The notes under the pieces were generated by a model. The model was not told where the DNA came from. It saw only the letters and a list, made by a program, of their open reading frames with translations, and ran no database searches. A DNA stretch of 58,740 nucleotides from a virus (lineage: Duplodnaviria > Caudoviricetes), in IMG/VR virus record IMGVR_UViG_3300046170_000273, positions 1-58,740 of that record; one strand, written 5' to 3'. The translations under genes and the position numbers were made by a program. How positions within the stretch are numbered: the first letter of the stretch is position 1; each line of letters begins with the position of its first letter. Positions 46,448 through 55,408 of the stretch are shown piece by piece.

Positions 46448-47797
46448 CTATTGAAATTTATATCTTATTATTACTATACCTGAACCACCAGAACCACCTA
46501 CTCCACTTGGTCCACCACCATTACTTCCACCGCCACCACCGCCTGTGTTGTCAGTTCCATTTGTAGCCGCAACAGAACTTCCTGGATAGGGTCCAGATGC
46601 ACCACAACCACCGCCACCAGGGCCTCCTGTTCCTTTATTAGCAGGGTCAGATCCACCACCGCCACCTCCAGCGAATGTTGTTGCTGATCCATTGATACTT
46701 GTTGTTGCTCCTGCACCTCCAGGTCCACCTGTACCTGATCCTGCATTTCCTCCAACTGCAGTAGCACCGCCACCGCCTCCTTGTGCGTAAGGTGGAGCAT
46801 CACGAGTTGTTCCTGCATTATTACCTTGAGGGGGAGTTGTTGGTGGAGTATTTCCTGCAGCACCTGATCTTGCAGTACAACCTGTTCCGGTAGCACCAGC
46901 CGATCCTCCAGAGCCACCAGCATCTGCAGCACAAACTCGACCACCTGCACCACCACCTGCTGAACTAATCGTACTAAAAGTTGAAACACTTCCGGGTGCG
47001 CCTTTAGTATAAGGAGATGATTCATCAGATGCCCCTCCACCACCAACTGCAATAGGAAAACCTGTTGCTGTTACTGTAATTCTATTTCCAGGTGTTGAAT
47101 ATCCATCTAAAGGACTTGCCGTATAAGGTGTGGCTGGAGATTTTAATTCTCTAAAACCACCTGCTCCACCTGCTCCACCTCTATCGTGAGCTGATCCACC
47201 ACCTCCAGCTACTACAACATAAGAAACTAAATTATTAGCAGCGCAACCTGATACAGAACTAACTGTAAAAGTTCCATCGCTCGTAAATGTATGAATTTTG
47301 TCATCACCACAAGTAGTTATTGTTCCTCCAGTTGCTACCATAAAAGATTCACCTGCAAAAGTTGATGAATCATCTTGTGTTGCTACCCATCCTTGAGTTG
47401 CATCTACATAAACTAAAAATATTGAAGCACCAGCAGTTTTTATAACTACATCAGCATCAGAGGCACCATTAATAGGAGATCCACCTCTACCAATTGTTAA
47501 ATTAGCAGTTGCAAAATTTCCGTTATAATCTTTTAATCCTACAATATCTCCTGCACTAGGAGAACTAGGAAGTGTTAAAGTAAAAGCTCCACTTGCTGCT
47601 GTATCACAAAAATATCCTTCTCCTGATACTGCAGTAAAGTTAGTTGTCTTTTTTGTAGTAACCCAGTTTACTGTTCCTGTTCTACCAAATCCTGTTTGAG
47701 TTGCACCACAAGCCAAAGTTACTGCTGTGCCTGGCCCACCTAATTCTAGGGTGCTTCCATTTCGTTTATCTATTTTATTTACTTTAACTGTGCTCAT
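46448..47797 (-). CDS. Glycine-rich tail fibre 3
   Basis: TLPSSPSAGD domain, VVAGGG...GGSGIVIIRY. Confidence 0.85.
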   Translation of the reverse strand: MSTVKVNKIDKRNGSTLELGGPGTAVTLACGATQTGFGRTGTVNWVTTKKTTNFTAVSGEGYFCDTAASGAFTLTLPSSPSAGDIVGLKDYNGNFATANLTIGRGGSPINGASDADVVIKTAGASIFLVYVDATQGWVATQDDSSTFAGESFMVATGGTITTCGDDKIHTFTSDGTFTVSSVSGCAANNLVSYVVVAGGGGSAHDRGGAGGAGGFRELKSPATPYTASPLDGYSTPGNRITVTATGFPIAVGGGGASDESSPYTKGAPGSVSTFSTISSAGGGAGGRVCAADAGGSGGSAGATGTGCTARSGAAGNTPPTTPPQGNNAGTTRDAPPYAQGGGGGATAVGGNAGSGTGGPGGAGATTSINGSATTFAGGGGGGSDPANKGTGGPGGGGCGASGPYPGSSVAATNGTDNTGGGGGGSNGGGPSGVGGSGGSGIVIIRYKFQ

Positions 47798-47803
47798 AAT
47801 TTT

Positions 47804-49204
47804 TTAACTATTAAATGTACCATCCGATGTAAATATTCTAACTGTGTCTGAACCACAAGTTAAAACAACGTTACCACCAGCAGTTGTTGGAGTTGCATCT
47901 GATGTTGCGTGTTTAATAACTACTATACCTGATCCACCAGTTCCTCCTGCGCCATTGTGTTGTCCAGCTGCTCCACCACCAGTATTTGCAGTTCCATTTT
48001 GTGCTGCAGAACTACCACCTCCTCCGGCACCACCAGTTCCATTACTTCCTGGAGAAGGAGGAAAACCACCTCTACCAGAACCACCGCCTGAAAAATATCT
48101 TCCAGGACTTGGACCCGGAGTTCCATAAGTTGGGGCTGCAGGTAATGAACCAAAAATTGCATTGGGAGAACCAGCTCCACCATTTCCTCCGGTATTAGGA
48201 CCTAAAGGTGCACCACATTGCCCTTGACCAGCAGCACCACCACCGCCACCTGATCTAACATTTCCAGAAGATACTAATGCATTACCACCAGGTTGTCCTT
48301 GAGGTGGACTTACTGGAGGAGTATTACCCGCGTGATTTGTTGAACAACCACCTGGACCTCCACCGCCACCACCTGTACCACCGCCTGATCCACCTGTTGC
48401 TTCTGCAACAGACGGCTGGCCGTCTGTTGTTCCACCGCCACCACCAGCAGAGGTTATTGTTGAAAAAACTGAAGGAGTTCCTCTAATAGCATCATTACCT
48501 GAAGCAGTTCCTGGAGCTCCTCCTCCTACAGTAATAGTAAAAGCTGTAGCGCCATCTATAGAAAAGTTTTTTGAACAAACTGTTCTAAAACCACCAGCTC
48601 CACCACCGCCACCGCCATATGTTCCACCAGAACCTCCACCGCCACCTGCTACTACTAAATATTGAACATTGTATGGAACAGTACCTGTTACATCTGTTGT
48701 TGAATCTTGAACTGATAGCCAACCTTTTGTACCATCAACATAAATTAAAGTTACTGACTGACTTTCTGTGCTTAAATTTGCACAACCACATGTTCCATTT
48801 ATTTTTGATCCATTTCTAGCTATTATTAACTTGTTGGTATCCCAAGTATCTGCATAATCTTTAAATGAAACAATATCTCCTGCTGATGGAGAAGCTGGTA
48901 AAGTCACTGTAATAGTTCCACCTGTTGTATTTACAAAATATCCATTGCCTGAAGAAACTGTTAAAGGACTTGTCTTTACTGTTGTACACCAATTTACAGA
49001 GCCTGATCTTCCAAATCCTGATTGAGTTGCACCTGATGCAAGATTAACAGCACCACCACATCTACCTAACGTTACTGTTGCACCGTCTATAACAATAGTT
49101 TGACCAGAACCTGATCCAACTGTCGTTGTTGTTCCACATTTTTTAATGATGTTAGAATCGTCTGAAACTTTTTGTATGTTATCTGTTTTAATTATACTTG
49201 CCAT
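47804..49204 (-). CDS. Glycine-rich tail fibre 2
   Basis: Same architecture, paralog. Confidence 0.85.
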   Translation of the reverse strand: MASIIKTDNIQKVSDDSNIIKKCGTTTTVGSGSGQTIVIDGATVTLGRCGGAVNLASGATQSGFGRSGSVNWCTTVKTSPLTVSSGNGYFVNTTGGTITVTLPASPSAGDIVSFKDYADTWDTNKLIIARNGSKINGTCGCANLSTESQSVTLIYVDGTKGWLSVQDSTTDVTGTVPYNVQYLVVAGGGGGSGGTYGGGGGGAGGFRTVCSKNFSIDGATAFTITVGGGAPGTASGNDAIRGTPSVFSTITSAGGGGGTTDGQPSVAEATGGSGGGTGGGGGGPGGCSTNHAGNTPPVSPPQGQPGGNALVSSGNVRSGGGGGAAGQGQCGAPLGPNTGGNGGAGSPNAIFGSLPAAPTYGTPGPSPGRYFSGGGSGRGGFPPSPGSNGTGGAGGGGSSAAQNGTANTGGGAAGQHNGAGGTGGSGIVVIKHATSDATPTTAGGNVVLTCGSDTVRIFTSDGTFNS

Positions 49205-49211
49205 AATTTAC

Positions 49212-50633
49212 CTATTGAAATTTATATCTTATCATTACTATACCTGATCCACCTGCACCACCATTTGTACATCCAGGTACTCCTGCTCCTGGCCCTTGTC
49301 TTGAGGTACCTCCACCACCTCCACCAGTGTTAGCAGTAGCAGCTACACCTGCACCAGGTGAAGTTGGGCCTGGACCTGCTCGTCCTCCGCCACCCTCTCC
49401 TCCTGCGCCATTAGTTCCTGCTGGATTACCTGCTCCTCCTTCTACTCCACCGCCTCCTCCACCTGCAAAATATCTTGTTGAAGAAACTGGACCTGGTGTT
49501 CCATAACTTGGGGCTGTTGGACCAATAAATGCGTCACCTAAAAAAGAACCTATACCACCTGTACCACCATTATTACTACTACCATTTGTTCCAACTGCTC
49601 CGGCTCCTCCACCGCCTCCAGCTGCTCTACAAGAACTTCCTGTTCCACCTTGTCCTCCATTATTTCCTTGTGGTGGAGAAACTGGTGGTTGATTACCACT
49701 AAATACACTTGCTCCATTTGGATTTTCACCTCTTTGTCCTGCTCCTGATCCTCCTGATCCATCTGCAAAACCTGGTGCTGGCACGTTTCCTCCTGTGCTT
49801 GCTCCACCTCCTGCGGATGTAATTGAAGAAAAAATTGAATTTGATCCTTTAGAGCCACAAGCTCCAACAGCTGCTCCACCTGCACCTACTGTAATTGGAT
49901 ATGTTGTTGATGATGAAATAGATATACCTGTTGGATTTGACAAAGGGGACATTGTTGGTGCTGCAACACAAAGATCATTTGATACTCTAAAACCACCTGC
50001 TCCAGCTCCAGCTGTTTGTGTCTGACCTGCGCCACCGCCTCCTCCTGCAACCACAAAATAATCTGCTGTGTTGTTTCCTGGTGTTGGTGCTGTAGTAACT
50101 GCAAAACAACCACTTGCAGTAAATATATGTGTTTTATAATCACCAGTAGTTACTACAGTTCCTCCAGTTGCAACAATAAAATTAGGGCTTCCTGAAATAT
50201 TAGCACTTGAATCTTGTATGTCTTGCCAACCTTTAGTCCCATCAACATAAATTAATGTAACTGATTGAGCTCTAGTATTTAAATCTGCGTTAGAGCATAC
50301 ACCACCAATTTTTGATCCATTTCTACAAACTGTAAGAACATTAGAATCCCAAGTACTTGCATAATCTTTGAAAGCTACAACATCTCCAGCGCTTGGCGAT
50401 GACGGAAGTGTAACTGTAATAGATCCACCTGTGGTATTTACAAAATATCCTACTTTATCTACTGCTGTAAAAGGAGAAGTCTTCGCTGTTGTACACCATA
50501 ATACTGATGAAGATGGAGTACCAAAACCTGTTTGAGTTGCACCAGATCCTAGAGTTACAGCAGTTCCTGGGCCTCCTATTGTAAGAGTAGAACCACTTTG
50601 TTTAACTAATTCATTTACTTCTATTTTACTCAT
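49212..50633 (-). CDS. Glycine-rich tail fibre 1
   Basis: Start MSKIEVNEL at 50633 (TAATG coupling). Confidence 0.85.
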   Translation of the reverse strand: MSKIEVNELVKQSGSTLTIGGPGTAVTLGSGATQTGFGTPSSSVLWCTTAKTSPFTAVDKVGYFVNTTGGSITVTLPSSPSAGDVVAFKDYASTWDSNVLTVCRNGSKIGGVCSNADLNTRAQSVTLIYVDGTKGWQDIQDSSANISGSPNFIVATGGTVVTTGDYKTHIFTASGCFAVTTAPTPGNNTADYFVVAGGGGGAGQTQTAGAGAGGFRVSNDLCVAAPTMSPLSNPTGISISSSTTYPITVGAGGAAVGACGSKGSNSIFSSITSAGGGASTGGNVPAPGFADGSGGSGAGQRGENPNGASVFSGNQPPVSPPQGNNGGQGGTGSSCRAAGGGGGAGAVGTNGSSNNGGTGGIGSFLGDAFIGPTAPSYGTPGPVSSTRYFAGGGGGGVEGGAGNPAGTNGAGGEGGGGRAGPGPTSPGAGVAATANTGGGGGGTSRQGPGAGVPGCTNGGAGGSGIVMIRYKFQ

Positions 50634-51409
50634 TAAATTACTACTACTGTTCCTGTTATTGTTTGTGTTCCCGTTATAGTTACAGGTCCAGCTAAAACTC
50701 CAGATGCAATTGTTTGATCTTGTGAAAGAGTTGTAGCGTGTGTAACTATATAATCTGTGGCTGTCATAGATGGTGACATTGATCTCGATGCTGGTAGTGT
50801 ACAAAATACATTTTTAGTACCTGCCGAAAAATTTACTTTGCTATCACTATTTGATGACGAGATAACTGTATCTCTTGTAAGATTACCGACTGTAGCTGTT
50901 GTTGCAGTAAAACCCATTCCAGCGTGGTTTGTGCAATAAGCATATAAAGTTGGAGCTGATGATGCTACTACAATTACAGTTTTTGCACCAGCACTTCCCG
51001 GCGTCCCAGTGGCTGTTACACCGGTTGTATATTCTGTTCCGCCTGCAGCGTCCGCTGCAGTTGCAAATCTTAATGGATGACCTGCGTTAGAAGAATCAGA
51101 TTGATCAAAAGTATAAGTAACGGTTTCTGCTAGATCAATAGAAGCTTGTAAAGATCCATCTAAGTAATATTTATTACCACTTCCTGGATTTACAACAGTA
51201 ACTGCAAAAGATACAGCTGCATTTACCGTACCAATTCCTACTTCAAACTCACCTGCAGAATTGTTTTCAATTGCATAGTAAGTTGTATTGCCAGCACTAA
51301 TACCTGAAACAAAAGTCTCATAACCTTGTTCTGCTCCGCCAAAGTTAATTGTTCCTGTTCCAGTAGTTGTACTTGTTTCTTTAACTCTATCGTTAACTAT
51401 TAAAGCCAT
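50633..51409 (-). CDS. Tail structural protein with an inserted beta domain
   Basis: MALIVNDRVKET...FEVGIG [insert] LTRDTVISSSN..VFCT. Confidence 0.75.
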   Translation of the reverse strand: MALIVNDRVKETSTTTGTGTINFGGAEQGYETFVSGISAGNTTYYAIENNSAGEFEVGIGTVNAAVSFAVTVVNPGSGNKYYLDGSLQASIDLAETVTYTFDQSDSSNAGHPLRFATAADAAGGTEYTTGVTATGTPGSAGAKTVIVVASSAPTLYAYCTNHAGMGFTATTATVGNLTRDTVISSSNSDSKVNFSAGTKNVFCTLPASRSMSPSMTATDYIVTHATTLSQDQTIASGVLAGPVTITGTQTITGTVVVI

Positions 51410-54357: not shown

Positions 54358-54378
54358 AATTATTCTCCGTTAAATTGA

Positions 54379-54398
54379 TGTGGGGCCGAAGCCCCACA
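54379..54398 (-). terminator. C(UUCG)G hairpin
   Basis: TGTGGGGC-TTCG-GCCCCACA on minus. Confidence 0.7.
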
Positions 54399-54409
54399 CT
54401 AATTATTTA

Positions 54410-54799
54410 TTATGCTTCTTTAGCAAAAGTTCCTCTAACTTGAGTAACTTGCCATGCAGTAGTTCCATCTAATGATGCAATTACAACATAGTCACCTTGT
54501 CTTGAAGTAGCTTTTGTATTGATTAAGTCTTTGTCATCTGTTGATGAACCAGCATAAGTGATTCCGTCAGATGCATTAGGACTGATCGTCATTGTGTTTT
54601 GTCCATCAGGCGCATTGTTTGCGAACTTGAATGAGTATCCAACTGCAATTGCAGGTAAAGTGAATACCACACCATCTGTTTCAGAAACAAAAGTTTTTCC
54701 TGAATCAGCGTTAGTCACAGTGTAACTTGAAGCTTTAGTTTCAATGTTAACACCTTCTTTACCTTGAAGTACTGGACCTGAAAATGTAGTTTTTGCCAT
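54410..54799 (-). CDS. Head decoration/fibre-like protein (MAKTTFSGPV)
   Basis: 129 aa, AGGAGG SD, own promoter. Confidence 0.75.
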   Translation of the reverse strand: MAKTTFSGPVLQGKEGVNIETKASSYTVTNADSGKTFVSETDGVVFTLPAIAVGYSFKFANNAPDGQNTMTISPNASDGITYAGSSTDDKDLINTKATSRQGDYVVIASLDGTTAWQVTQVRGTFAKEA

Positions 54800-54807
54800 A
54801 ATTATAT

Positions 54808-54883
54808 CCTCCTAGTTTACAGATCATAGTCTCTAGGCCGTCGACTATACGCGTCTATGATCTTTTGATAATTGTATAGTGAG
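54808..54883 (-). ncRNA. Candidate cis-regulatory double-pseudoknot 5' UTR
   Basis: 9-bp stem whose loop pairs both upstream (7 bp) and with the SD (5 bp). Confidence 0.6.
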
Positions 54884-54886
54884 TTT

Positions 54887-54915
54887 TTTATATACTAGAT
54901 TTGAGTAGAGTGCAA
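54887..54915 (-). promoter_or_regulatory. sigma70 promoter TTGCAC-17-TATAAA
   Basis: Directly upstream of the structured leader. Confidence 0.6.
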
Positions 54916-54962
54916 GAGAGCCTGTAGTGTGGAGTGGATTTATCCAACGATGTAGCTTTTTA

Positions 54963-55383: not shown

Positions 55384-55408
55384 TGAGGCGGGATTGTGTC
55401 CCGCCTCA
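55384..55408 (-). terminator. Hairpin/terminator after the major capsid gene
   Basis: TGAGGCGGGA/TCCCGCCTCA perfect 10-bp stem. Confidence 0.75.

Follow-up and report, generated by a model that had tools for sequence, protein, structure and literature searches.

What the short gap between two open reading frames (ORFs) encodes is the question raised by a tailed-phage genome, IMG/VR record IMGVR_UViG_3300046170_000273, which we analyzed over its full 58,740 nucleotides (nt; hereafter the window). The gap measures 163 nt, lies between minus-strand ORFs of 74 and 129 amino acids (aa), and holds promoter-like signals followed by a knotted leader. A preliminary description, made from the sequence alone, had proposed a riboswitch-like double pseudoknot able to sequester the Shine-Dalgarno sequence of a head decoration gene. 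We are close to certain that the leader is a real, selected RNA structure acting in cis. As detailed below, its conserved, interlocked fold in the sense-strand 5′ leader stands, with every helix covarying in the leaders of homologs, and its proposed function required revision.

A doubly pseudoknotted leader

The features of the locus, read along the minus strand, are listed here.

54910–54915, minus: −35-like hexamer TTGCAC, read from the sequence, inside a conserved block, TCTCTTGCACTCTA
54887–54892, minus: −10-like hexamer TATAAA, after a 17-nt spacer from TTGCAC and 6 nt before PK1
54874–54880, minus: 5′ strand ACUAUAC of the first pseudoknot (PK1), at the predicted mRNA 5′ end; partner at 54844–54850
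Between ACUAUAC and the 5′ strand of P1, minus: A/U-rich linker of 10 nt
54855–54863, minus: 5′ strand AGAUCAUAG of the outer stem (P1); partner CUAUGAUCU; all 9 pairs with compensatory changes
54854–54830, minus: core A-CG-C-GUAUAGU-CG-AC-GG-CCUAG-AGA, 25 nt enclosed by P1
54842–54853, minus: mini-helix P2 (CG/CG), flanking an unpaired C and the PK1 3′ strand GUAUAGU (54844–54850)
54830–54841, minus: junction AC-GG, 5′ strand CCUAG of the second pseudoknot (PK2; 54833–54837), junction AGA
54821–54829, minus: P1 3′ strand CUAUGAUCU, followed by GUAAA; also found as an inverted repeat
54808–54815, minus: PK2 3′ strand CUAGG (54811–54815), overlapping the Shine-Dalgarno sequence AGGAGG (54808–54813)
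54410–54799, minus: downstream gene of 129 aa (ORF; ATG at 54799–54797), probable capsid cement or decoration protein
54379–54398, minus: terminator-like hairpin GUGGGGC-UUCG-GCCCCAC, closing the one-gene unit

Every pairing listed in the preliminary description for its three interlocked helices is exact at these positions, and P1, PK1 and PK2 are perfect Watson–Crick helices throughout; an inverted-repeat search also returned the PK1 loop strand. To these we added P2, whose two base pairs (C54853–G54842 and G54852–C54843) bracket that strand. The element is single copy in the phage: model R1 gave the leader 107 bits and no other place more than 22.5 bits. None of 20,000 dinucleotide-preserving shuffles of the 90-nt leader reproduced its topology (a stem of 9 bp with, in its loop, 7 nt that can pair with the 5′ flank and 5 nt that can pair with the 3′ flank), and 329 of 20,000 did so when these limits were relaxed to 7, 5 and 4. 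Modeled as a nested-only fold, the leader showed no unusual stability (minimum free energy −14.4 kcal/mol, z = −0.59), so the signal lies in pseudoknot topology and conservation rather than in energy. Because CCUAG and CUAGG both contain the palindrome CUAG, PK2 complementarity within the window is weaker evidence than it appears; we consider PK2 to be established by covariation in other lineages rather than by the sequence of the window. We dropped another candidate for a third helix, GUC/GAC around CCUAG, since a paired change in one relative (L052; relatives are cited by L numbers) fits P2 instead, and a competing hairpin in the window, UAUAGU...ACUAUG, was dropped because relatives such as L028 do not keep it. 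No conserved alternative fold was seen among the relatives' leaders.

To collect homologous leaders, viral contigs were scanned with the 129-aa protein, and the best 80 of 287 relatives were taken, less two that came without upstream DNA (L035 and L069). Once the window and two GenBank phages had been added, the set came to 43 unique 100-nt leaders. By eye, 39 were of the window type (type 1), 3 belonged to a second type, and L051 alone represented a third. A pattern scan added at least 120 stretches; as the pattern fixes AGTCGA, CCTAG and CTAGGAG, the invariance of PK2 in that set carries no meaning. The resulting 189 type-1 leaders, 150 of them unique, were aligned (alignment A1), and covariation was judged by pair counts and a purpose-written parser.

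All nine P1 pairs in A1 had changed on both sides, as had four of the seven PK1 pairs, with 99.4% of PK1 cells paired. The PK1 helix ACUAUAC:GUAUAGU was rewritten as ACUGUAU:AUACAGU, ACUGCG:CGCAGU or ACUAUAU:AUAUAGU in type 1, and the G:C pair swapped to C:G in L052 belongs to P2. PK2 was invariant across this alignment. The overall covariation score of 0.302 was reached by none of 500 shuffles, and sliding the 3′ partners by one to three columns lowered pairing from 94.5% to 20–44%. RNAalifold, run on its own, returned eight pairs of P1, all with compensatory changes. The type-1 P1 helix contained 62 G-U cells and 4 A-C cells, an asymmetry which indicates that the structure was selected in RNA of the gene's sense strand.

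The third kind of leader (L051:1404–1503) occurs in a relative with an 85% identical protein and fits neither the double pseudoknot nor the Mu-gpT-DE motif discussed below; it has a GGGGG...CCCCC hairpin, a CUUCC...GGAAGG complementarity to its Shine-Dalgarno sequence, and a GACUGC-AUAA-GCAGAC hairpin.

The second type, with 31 unique leaders, retained the same architecture with rewired sequences. Here, the 5′ tail CUAGG pairs with a CCUAG loop, P2 is CUG/CAG, and PK2 is CUCGUA:UACGAG, or CUUAC:GUAAG (L260), or CAUAC:GUAUG (L242 and L253). For a sample unbiased by the RNA, we scanned for DNA encoding the N-terminal peptide of the downstream protein; at least 120 loci yielded 118 unique leaders of at least 100 nt. 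The core grammar used by the parser ('P1, A, C..G, loop, C..G, AC, J, GA, P1', with junction letters A, AC and GA) fit 84 of the 118, which fell into four P2 types. PK1, taken as 5 or more complementary nt shared by the P2 loop and the upstream flank, was present in 84 of 84 parsed leaders, in 28 different strings; PK2, taken likewise for J and the stretch from P1 to the start codon, was present in 78 of 84, in 26 different strings that included the non-palindromic CAUGCA:UGCAUG and GUAUAG:CUAUAC of other lineages. The corresponding null rates for PK1 and PK2 were 40% and 28% with flanks from other lineages and 31% and 24% with shuffled flanks.

The 39-nt cores gave a nearly gap-free alignment (A3), in which the window core aligned without gaps to 66 other cores. 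Since pairing in A3 is demanded by the parser, only pair-type diversity counts as evidence; each P1 pair occurred as three to six pair types, and P2 pair 10–21 as GC (23), AU (20), UA (18) and CG (6). A core model, R2, recovered 15 of the 34 unparsed leaders at E < 0.01 and matched the leaders of Pelagibacter phages HTVC027P (50.2 bits) and HTVC023P (48.1 bits) and of phage DSL-LC04 (31.8 bits). It missed the leader of phage 023Pt_psg01 (L002), where the fold is present by eye and the only match was elsewhere (11.6 bits, E 0.75). In all, the 118 leaders were tallied as about 93 double pseudoknots, 4 intermediates, about 18 small forms, 2 marginal cases and 1 other. The double-pseudoknot fold is preserved in hundreds of related phages. 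Four helices that were each rewritten many times, around a fixed architecture and fixed junction letters (A, AC, G and AGA), are the signature of RNAs with a demanding three-dimensional job.

At least 120 pattern matches were also found in bacterial genomes; among those listed, 8 were the true motif and 112 were due to chance. Seven of the eight lie on 3–10-kb contigs of metagenome-assembled or single-cell genomes, and the eighth, whose leader is identical to that of the window, lies on a 59.5-kb contig of a Pelagibacteraceae single-cell genome. None of the matches listed lies on a long bacterial chromosomal contig.

Kinship with the Mu-gpT-DE motif

We examined whether the leader belongs to a catalogued RNA family. 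The leader was scanned within 1.1 kb and within 121 nt against Rfam 15 at E up to 10; over the leader itself, all 4227 families gave only a weak plus-strand match to PVX_3 (9.3 bits, E 9.6). The earlier impression that the sequence is unlike the known Shine-Dalgarno pseudoknot switches was thus borne out, as no riboswitch model of Rfam 15 matches within that limit. The novelty expected from an empty Rfam search is lessened by kinship with one entry, Mu-gpT-DE (RF03012), an orphan motif of unknown function (Weinberg et al. 2017) that Rfam types as 'Gene; sRNA'. Its Rfam consensus, CCCUG-A-CAGcc...ggCUG-ACAcUAGCCAcGA-CAGG-AGAUuaACAUG, includes the Shine-Dalgarno sequence and AUG of the next gene.

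RF03012 itself, with a gathering threshold of 49 bits, did not match the window leader at E up to 10. As positive controls, L278 and L299 scored 68.4 and 52.1 bits, and three more leaders reached 47–48 bits; none of 15 other leaders outside the small form, either doubly pseudoknotted or unclassified, matched at E up to 1. In the reverse direction, R2 scored Mu-gpT-DE members at only E 0.08–0.4, so the kinship rests on context, grammar and intermediates. The two share their niche after a Mu-gpT-like capsid gene (the window capsid protein scores 21.9 bits for PF10124, just over the cut-off of 20.1, and also matches PF25209) and the gene that follows, which belongs to a family with the N-terminus MAxTTFxGPV; a search with that peptide pattern recovered both leader forms. 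They also share a core grammar of outer stem, A, C..G hairpin, AC, about nine unpaired nt, GA, outer stem, and then the Shine-Dalgarno sequence and AUG. The conserved UAGCCA of Mu-gpT-DE stands where the window has its PK2 strand. Four intermediates (L293, L348, L383 and L391) combine PK1 and a long P1 with the Mu-gpT-DE-type UUGCCAAGA junction.

In the window, two pseudoknots reach to the 5′ and 3′ flanks, and the 9-bp P1 (3′ strand 54821–54829) stands apart from the Shine-Dalgarno sequence (54808–54813), which is touched by PK2 only. Mu-gpT-DE instead has a capped hairpin and a 4-bp outer stem whose 3′ strand, CAGGAG, is the Shine-Dalgarno sequence. We read the window element as a pseudoknotted variant of the Mu-gpT-DE motif and not as a member of RF03012, within a leader family whose large, doubly pseudoknotted form is the window type and whose small form is Mu-gpT-DE. 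The orphan motif thereby gains a concrete reading, as the 5′ leader that belongs to the gene following the capsid gene, a probable cement-protein gene, and that takes in its Shine-Dalgarno sequence and AUG; the form listed in Rfam sits at the small end of a family that extends far beyond it.

Among Mu-gpT-DE leaders (L278, L299, L302, L317, L328, L333, L344, L362, L380, L392 and others), 15 of them unique, the conserved unpaired UAGCC finds its complement in GGCUA at +3 to +7 of the downstream gene (AUG GCU A..) in 10. L333 shows the paired change UUGCC:GGCAA, and 4 of 15 do not fit. A pseudoknot over the start codon, as the small form's counterpart of PK2, is possible.

The papers found to name Mu-gpT-DE do not discuss its function, and the main text of the 2017 paper does not mention the motif; a differing ZWD version is mentioned in PMC7657543. 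We found nothing on pelagiphage pseudoknots, and searches combining double pseudoknots, bacteriophages and the Shine-Dalgarno sequence returned unrelated work only. The fold may already be present in the 2017 supplement (PMC5737381) or among 8,495 unnamed IMG/VR candidates (PMC10690425).

Predicted promoter, ribosome-binding site and downstream gene

The reading of TTGCAC-17-TATAAA as a promoter gained support from conservation. A TATAnn hexamer ends exactly 6 nt before the ACU of PK1 in 152 of 160 unique type-1 leaders, with the 6 nt between them variable, and a −35 hexamer at 17-nt spacing is present in 136 of 149 unique type-1 promoter regions (TTGCAC in 97, TTGCGC in 33 and TTGCAA in 6). 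Across all classes, a −10-like hexamer ends 2–11 nt before PK1 in 61 of 84 parsed leaders, often just past the terminator of the capsid gene. The fixed −10 spacing implies that the fold begins at the predicted mRNA 5′ end, and we infer that transcription would start at PK1 or 2–3 nt before it, near 54880. In four seawater metatranscriptome runs, contigs ran through the coding region and into the leader core as far as about 54854, and depth was low over 54872–54925; the contig ends fall where strains diverge, so public RNA libraries cannot show the transcript start.

The block around the −35 hexamer (54897–54920, minus; TCTCTTGCACTCTA) shows 70–99% conservation at each column across 149 relatives, extends beyond a hexamer, and has no second copy in the window; it may be a late-activator site rather than a plain sigma-70 −35 box. 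A T7-type phage promoter was considered and rejected: CTCACTATA of the leader is the sole exact copy in the window, and one-mismatch matches numbered 8 with 17 expected.

Shine-Dalgarno sequestration, the central functional proposal of the preliminary description, did not hold as a conserved feature. The 3′ strand of PK2 ends inside the Shine-Dalgarno sequence in 33 of 77 members, the window type included, and 0–13 nt before its GG in the other 44, which argues that sequestration is not what is conserved. Overlapping PK2 helices are short (mean 5.45 bp; 5 bp in 25 of 33), whereas non-overlapping helices average 6.93 bp (8 bp in 19 of 44); 8-bp helices occur in 20 of 84 members overall. What is conserved is therefore a compact fold that directly abuts the ribosome-binding site.

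Promoter-like signals of its own and a terminator-like hairpin flank the gene behind the leader, which lies in a cluster that forms a head module. Upstream in the module, the 302-aa capsid protein matches Phage_capsid_4, and Mu-like_gpT just over threshold. The window is an ocean podophage related to HTVC027P, HTVC023P and 023Pt_psg01 (72–76% nt identity in the capsid region). Its portal and adaptor proteins are of the SU10 type, and its replication genes include a DNA polymerase of family A. Two small ORFs and the promoter separate the capsid gene from the leader in the window, while in L042, HTVC023P and DSL-LC04 the leader directly follows the capsid gene. The first ten residues of the 129-aa protein (MAKTTFSGPV) are conserved, and the remainder is hypervariable between phages. 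Synonymous sites vary freely, so the peptide is conserved at the protein level only.

A strong GC-rich hairpin of 10–11 bp lies right after the capsid gene (55384–55408) and is terminator-like on both strands; relatives have a similar hairpin with the leader directly next to it. A sub-threshold Rfam match to antisense_SR1 (54372–54538, minus; 28.4 bits against 45, E 0.0027) covers the last part of the 129-aa gene together with the terminator-like hairpin behind it; the hairpin seems to drive the match, which is probably due to chance.

The assignment as a head decoration gene is plausible by way of a sister class of 153 aa, which shares only residues 1–14 with the window class. A structural model of that class (predicted local distance difference test, pLDDT, 73; predicted template modeling score, pTM, 0.68) had as its top Protein Data Bank (PDB) matches the capsid cement proteins of GP4, KHP30 and Pam1 (E 4.8e-4 to 1.1e-3), and also KHP40 7dou_4. 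The template modeling (TM) score on the query was 0.56 for GP4 8h89_J (E 4.8e-4), 0.53 for KHP30 7dn2_1 (listed as 0.53/0.62), and 0.43 for Pam1 7eel_H, the last a poor alignment with a root-mean-square deviation of 13.2. The DSL-LC04 copy is annotated 'cement protein'. For the window protein itself, the AlphaFold 2 model was unusable (pLDDT 37), and cement or decoration protein is therefore a probable assignment drawn from position and N-terminus. PHROGs and Pfam gave nothing usable, a PDB profile search aligned only a short stretch to actinohivin (E 3e-7), Atlas returned only unnamed viral clusters, and tblastn against cultured phages found no match.

In the excerpted rows of the HTVC027P gene table in the transcriptome paper PMC12753301, gp62, the leader-bearing gene (519 nt), is classed 'Late' and has high read counts of 52192, 40897 and 57723 in the last three columns, beside 233541, 187807 and 268359 for gp59 (capsid, 909 nt) and 10620, 7811 and 11594 for gp63 (312 nt). 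Cement proteins on the capsid equal the capsid protein in number, with 540 of each in GP4, according to an excerpt of PMC9698820.

Candidate functions of the leader

The leader probably acts in cis on stability, translation or both, and we tentatively favor a constitutive 5′-terminal stabilizer that also tunes the ribosome site. We read the element as about 70 nt of structured, cis-acting leader RNA on the late message for the gene that comes after the major-capsid module. As covariation shows, a 9-bp P1 encloses the 25-nt core, in which a 2–3-bp P2 presents the loop strand to the RNA 5′ end to form PK1, and a second core strand pairs, as PK2, with nucleotides just before or overlapping the Shine-Dalgarno sequence. 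The junction letters stay fixed while every helix changes sequence. The fold would form constitutively: PK1 would bury the first transcript nucleotides and so shield the message from 5′-end-dependent decay, and PK2 would set a compact structure at the ribosome-binding site, fixing the initiation rate without switching. The protein served would be one needed in capsid-scale amounts, a need that the cement-protein fold of the sister class fits. We favor a constitutive role because promoter spacing is fixed, the Shine-Dalgarno sequence is mostly free, PK2 is long, and no conserved competing fold was seen. Emory, Bouvet and Belasco are said to have found in 1992 that 5′-terminal base-paired structures stabilize bacterial mRNAs against RppH- and RNase E-dependent decay.

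Several observations count against such a stabilizer. A plain hairpin would suffice for the task, and a junction that does not change between AT-rich and GC-rich phages is more suggestive of a binding pocket or protein site. The invariance in the core alignment is partly imposed by the purpose-written parser. The start site is a prediction from promoter spacing, and the type-2 and Mu-gpT-DE motifs follow the capsid-gene terminator without an evident promoter and are not at a primary 5′ end. In addition, the outer stem of Mu-gpT-DE contains the Shine-Dalgarno sequence, which points to translation repression rather than protection.

Two known kinds of RNA offer partial parallels to the stabilizer. 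The ompA-type 5′ hairpin is a 5′-terminal stabilizing structure, and the exonuclease-resistant RNAs (xrRNAs) of flaviviruses withstand exonucleases. Like the former, the structure of the window family would start 0–4 nt from the predicted 5′ end; like the latter, it would hold the 5′ end in one pseudoknot and ties a loop to downstream sequence in a second. It differs from both in that its type-2 and Mu-gpT-DE forms are not promoter-proximal, and no sequence or model similarity links them.

Both the invariant junction and the strict gene link, along with a small form that sequesters the Shine-Dalgarno sequence, led us to retain two rivals. The first, which we rate as possible but short of probable, is a translational operator read by a phage protein, either unassembled cement protein, through its N-terminal arm, or capsid protein. 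Bound to the knotted leader, it would obstruct or trap the 30S subunit at the adjacent ribosome-binding site, thus coupling synthesis to capsid assembly. In favor of such an operator, the leader is strictly tied to one gene family in phages that otherwise differ widely, nearly all of the 118 leaders sampled by peptide being of the large or the Mu-gpT-DE form; only about the first 14 residues of the protein are conserved; in every case the fold stops at the ribosome-binding site or inside it, with the Mu-gpT-DE Shine-Dalgarno sequence within the outer stem; and the junction letters are invariant. The MAxTTFxGPV peptide, however, is not basic and is more simply read as a capsid anchor, and if protein and RNA were co-evolving, more drift would be expected in the letters that they contact. 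We also know of no precedent for autoregulation by a decoration protein, though the literature was not searched for one, and this counts against the operator.

Protein-dependent pseudoknot operators do exist, as in the T4 gene 32 leader and the S4 and S15 sites of the E. coli alpha operon and rpsO. With these the window shares a pseudoknot in the 5′ leader of a highly expressed gene, located at the ribosome-binding site or adjoining it, and a phage precedent, but its architecture is different. The T4 gene 32 case is described in an excerpt of PMC10690425.

The second rival is a riboswitch, in which a small-molecule or ion aptamer would stabilize PK2 upon ligand binding and reduce ribosome access. 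We regard it as doubtful. The compact 25-nt core, with fixed unpaired letters amid freely varying helices, would suit an aptamer, and the pseudoknot does reach the Shine-Dalgarno sequence in the window and in the overlapping members counted above. Size and topology also resemble the small pseudoknot riboswitches SAM-II, SAM-V and preQ1-II/III, which occlude the Shine-Dalgarno sequence; the likeness extends to the pseudoknot from loop to 3′ tail, which in the window reaches the Shine-Dalgarno sequence, and to fixed junction letters. The window differs from these riboswitches in adding a second pseudoknot to the 5′ end, in having no Rfam match at E up to 10, in a Shine-Dalgarno overlap that is not family-wide, and in a next gene that encodes a virion protein rather than a metabolic or transport function. 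Moreover, PK2 reaches 8 bp, a length that allows it to form with no ligand present, none of the competing structures seen was conserved, and the element occurs once per genome, with none on a long chromosomal contig among the bacterial matches listed. The initial proposal of a ligand- or protein-controlled translational switch is therefore upheld in its structure and weakened in its mechanism, by the Shine-Dalgarno overlap that is not conserved and by a virion-gene context unlike that of riboswitches.

A broader version of these two rivals, rather unlikely in our estimate, would make the double pseudoknot the aptamer of a new metabolite-, ion- or capsid-protein-sensing switch class that gates cement-protein synthesis, with Mu-gpT-DE as its minimal form. 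A new switch class would be carried by some of the ocean's most abundant phages, and a switch or a nuclease-blocking 5′ knot would, if true, be a new mechanism class in phage gene expression. Cultured phage–host pairs exist (HTVC027P and HTVC023P on Pelagibacter HTCC1062), so experiments are directly feasible. We reserve a small probability for mechanisms outside those considered here.

It is improbable that the motif serves as a downstream (3′) element of the capsid mRNA, or as a separate small RNA, that marks or stabilizes the end of the capsid message. The Rfam type of Mu-gpT-DE and its name, which implies a downstream element, suggest as much, and in the type-2 relatives HTVC023P and DSL-LC04 the motif directly follows the capsid gene and terminator. 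Yet in the window two ORFs and a conserved promoter intervene, the 3′ strand of the fold abuts or includes the next gene's Shine-Dalgarno sequence in every class, the Rfam consensus itself extends through that sequence and the AUG, and sampling by the downstream N-terminus finds the RNA in nearly every case.

An origin in chance complementarity, or in a signal at the level of DNA (for instance a recombination or protein-binding site built on CTAG palindromes), is hardly credible: the palindrome common to both PK2 strands and the position of the leader and N-terminal codons at the conserved edge of a hypervariable cassette (L110 has the window leader before a different protein) would allow it, but the topology never arose in the shuffles, compensatory changes occur in all helices, the excess of G-U over A-C cells is unexpected for a DNA duplex signal, and other lineages use non-palindromic PK2 strings.

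The gene (54410–54799, minus) is a swappable cassette, as in phages whose leaders are identical or nearly identical to that of the window (L110, L155 and L177 among them) the protein is unrelated past residue ~14. The promoter, leader and N-terminal codons on one side and the terminator hairpin on the other could act as recombination edges. Elsewhere in the window, three tandem minus-strand genes (46451–50804; 449, 466 and 530 aa) each end in a Gly_rich_2 domain and probably encode paralogous tail-fiber-like proteins.

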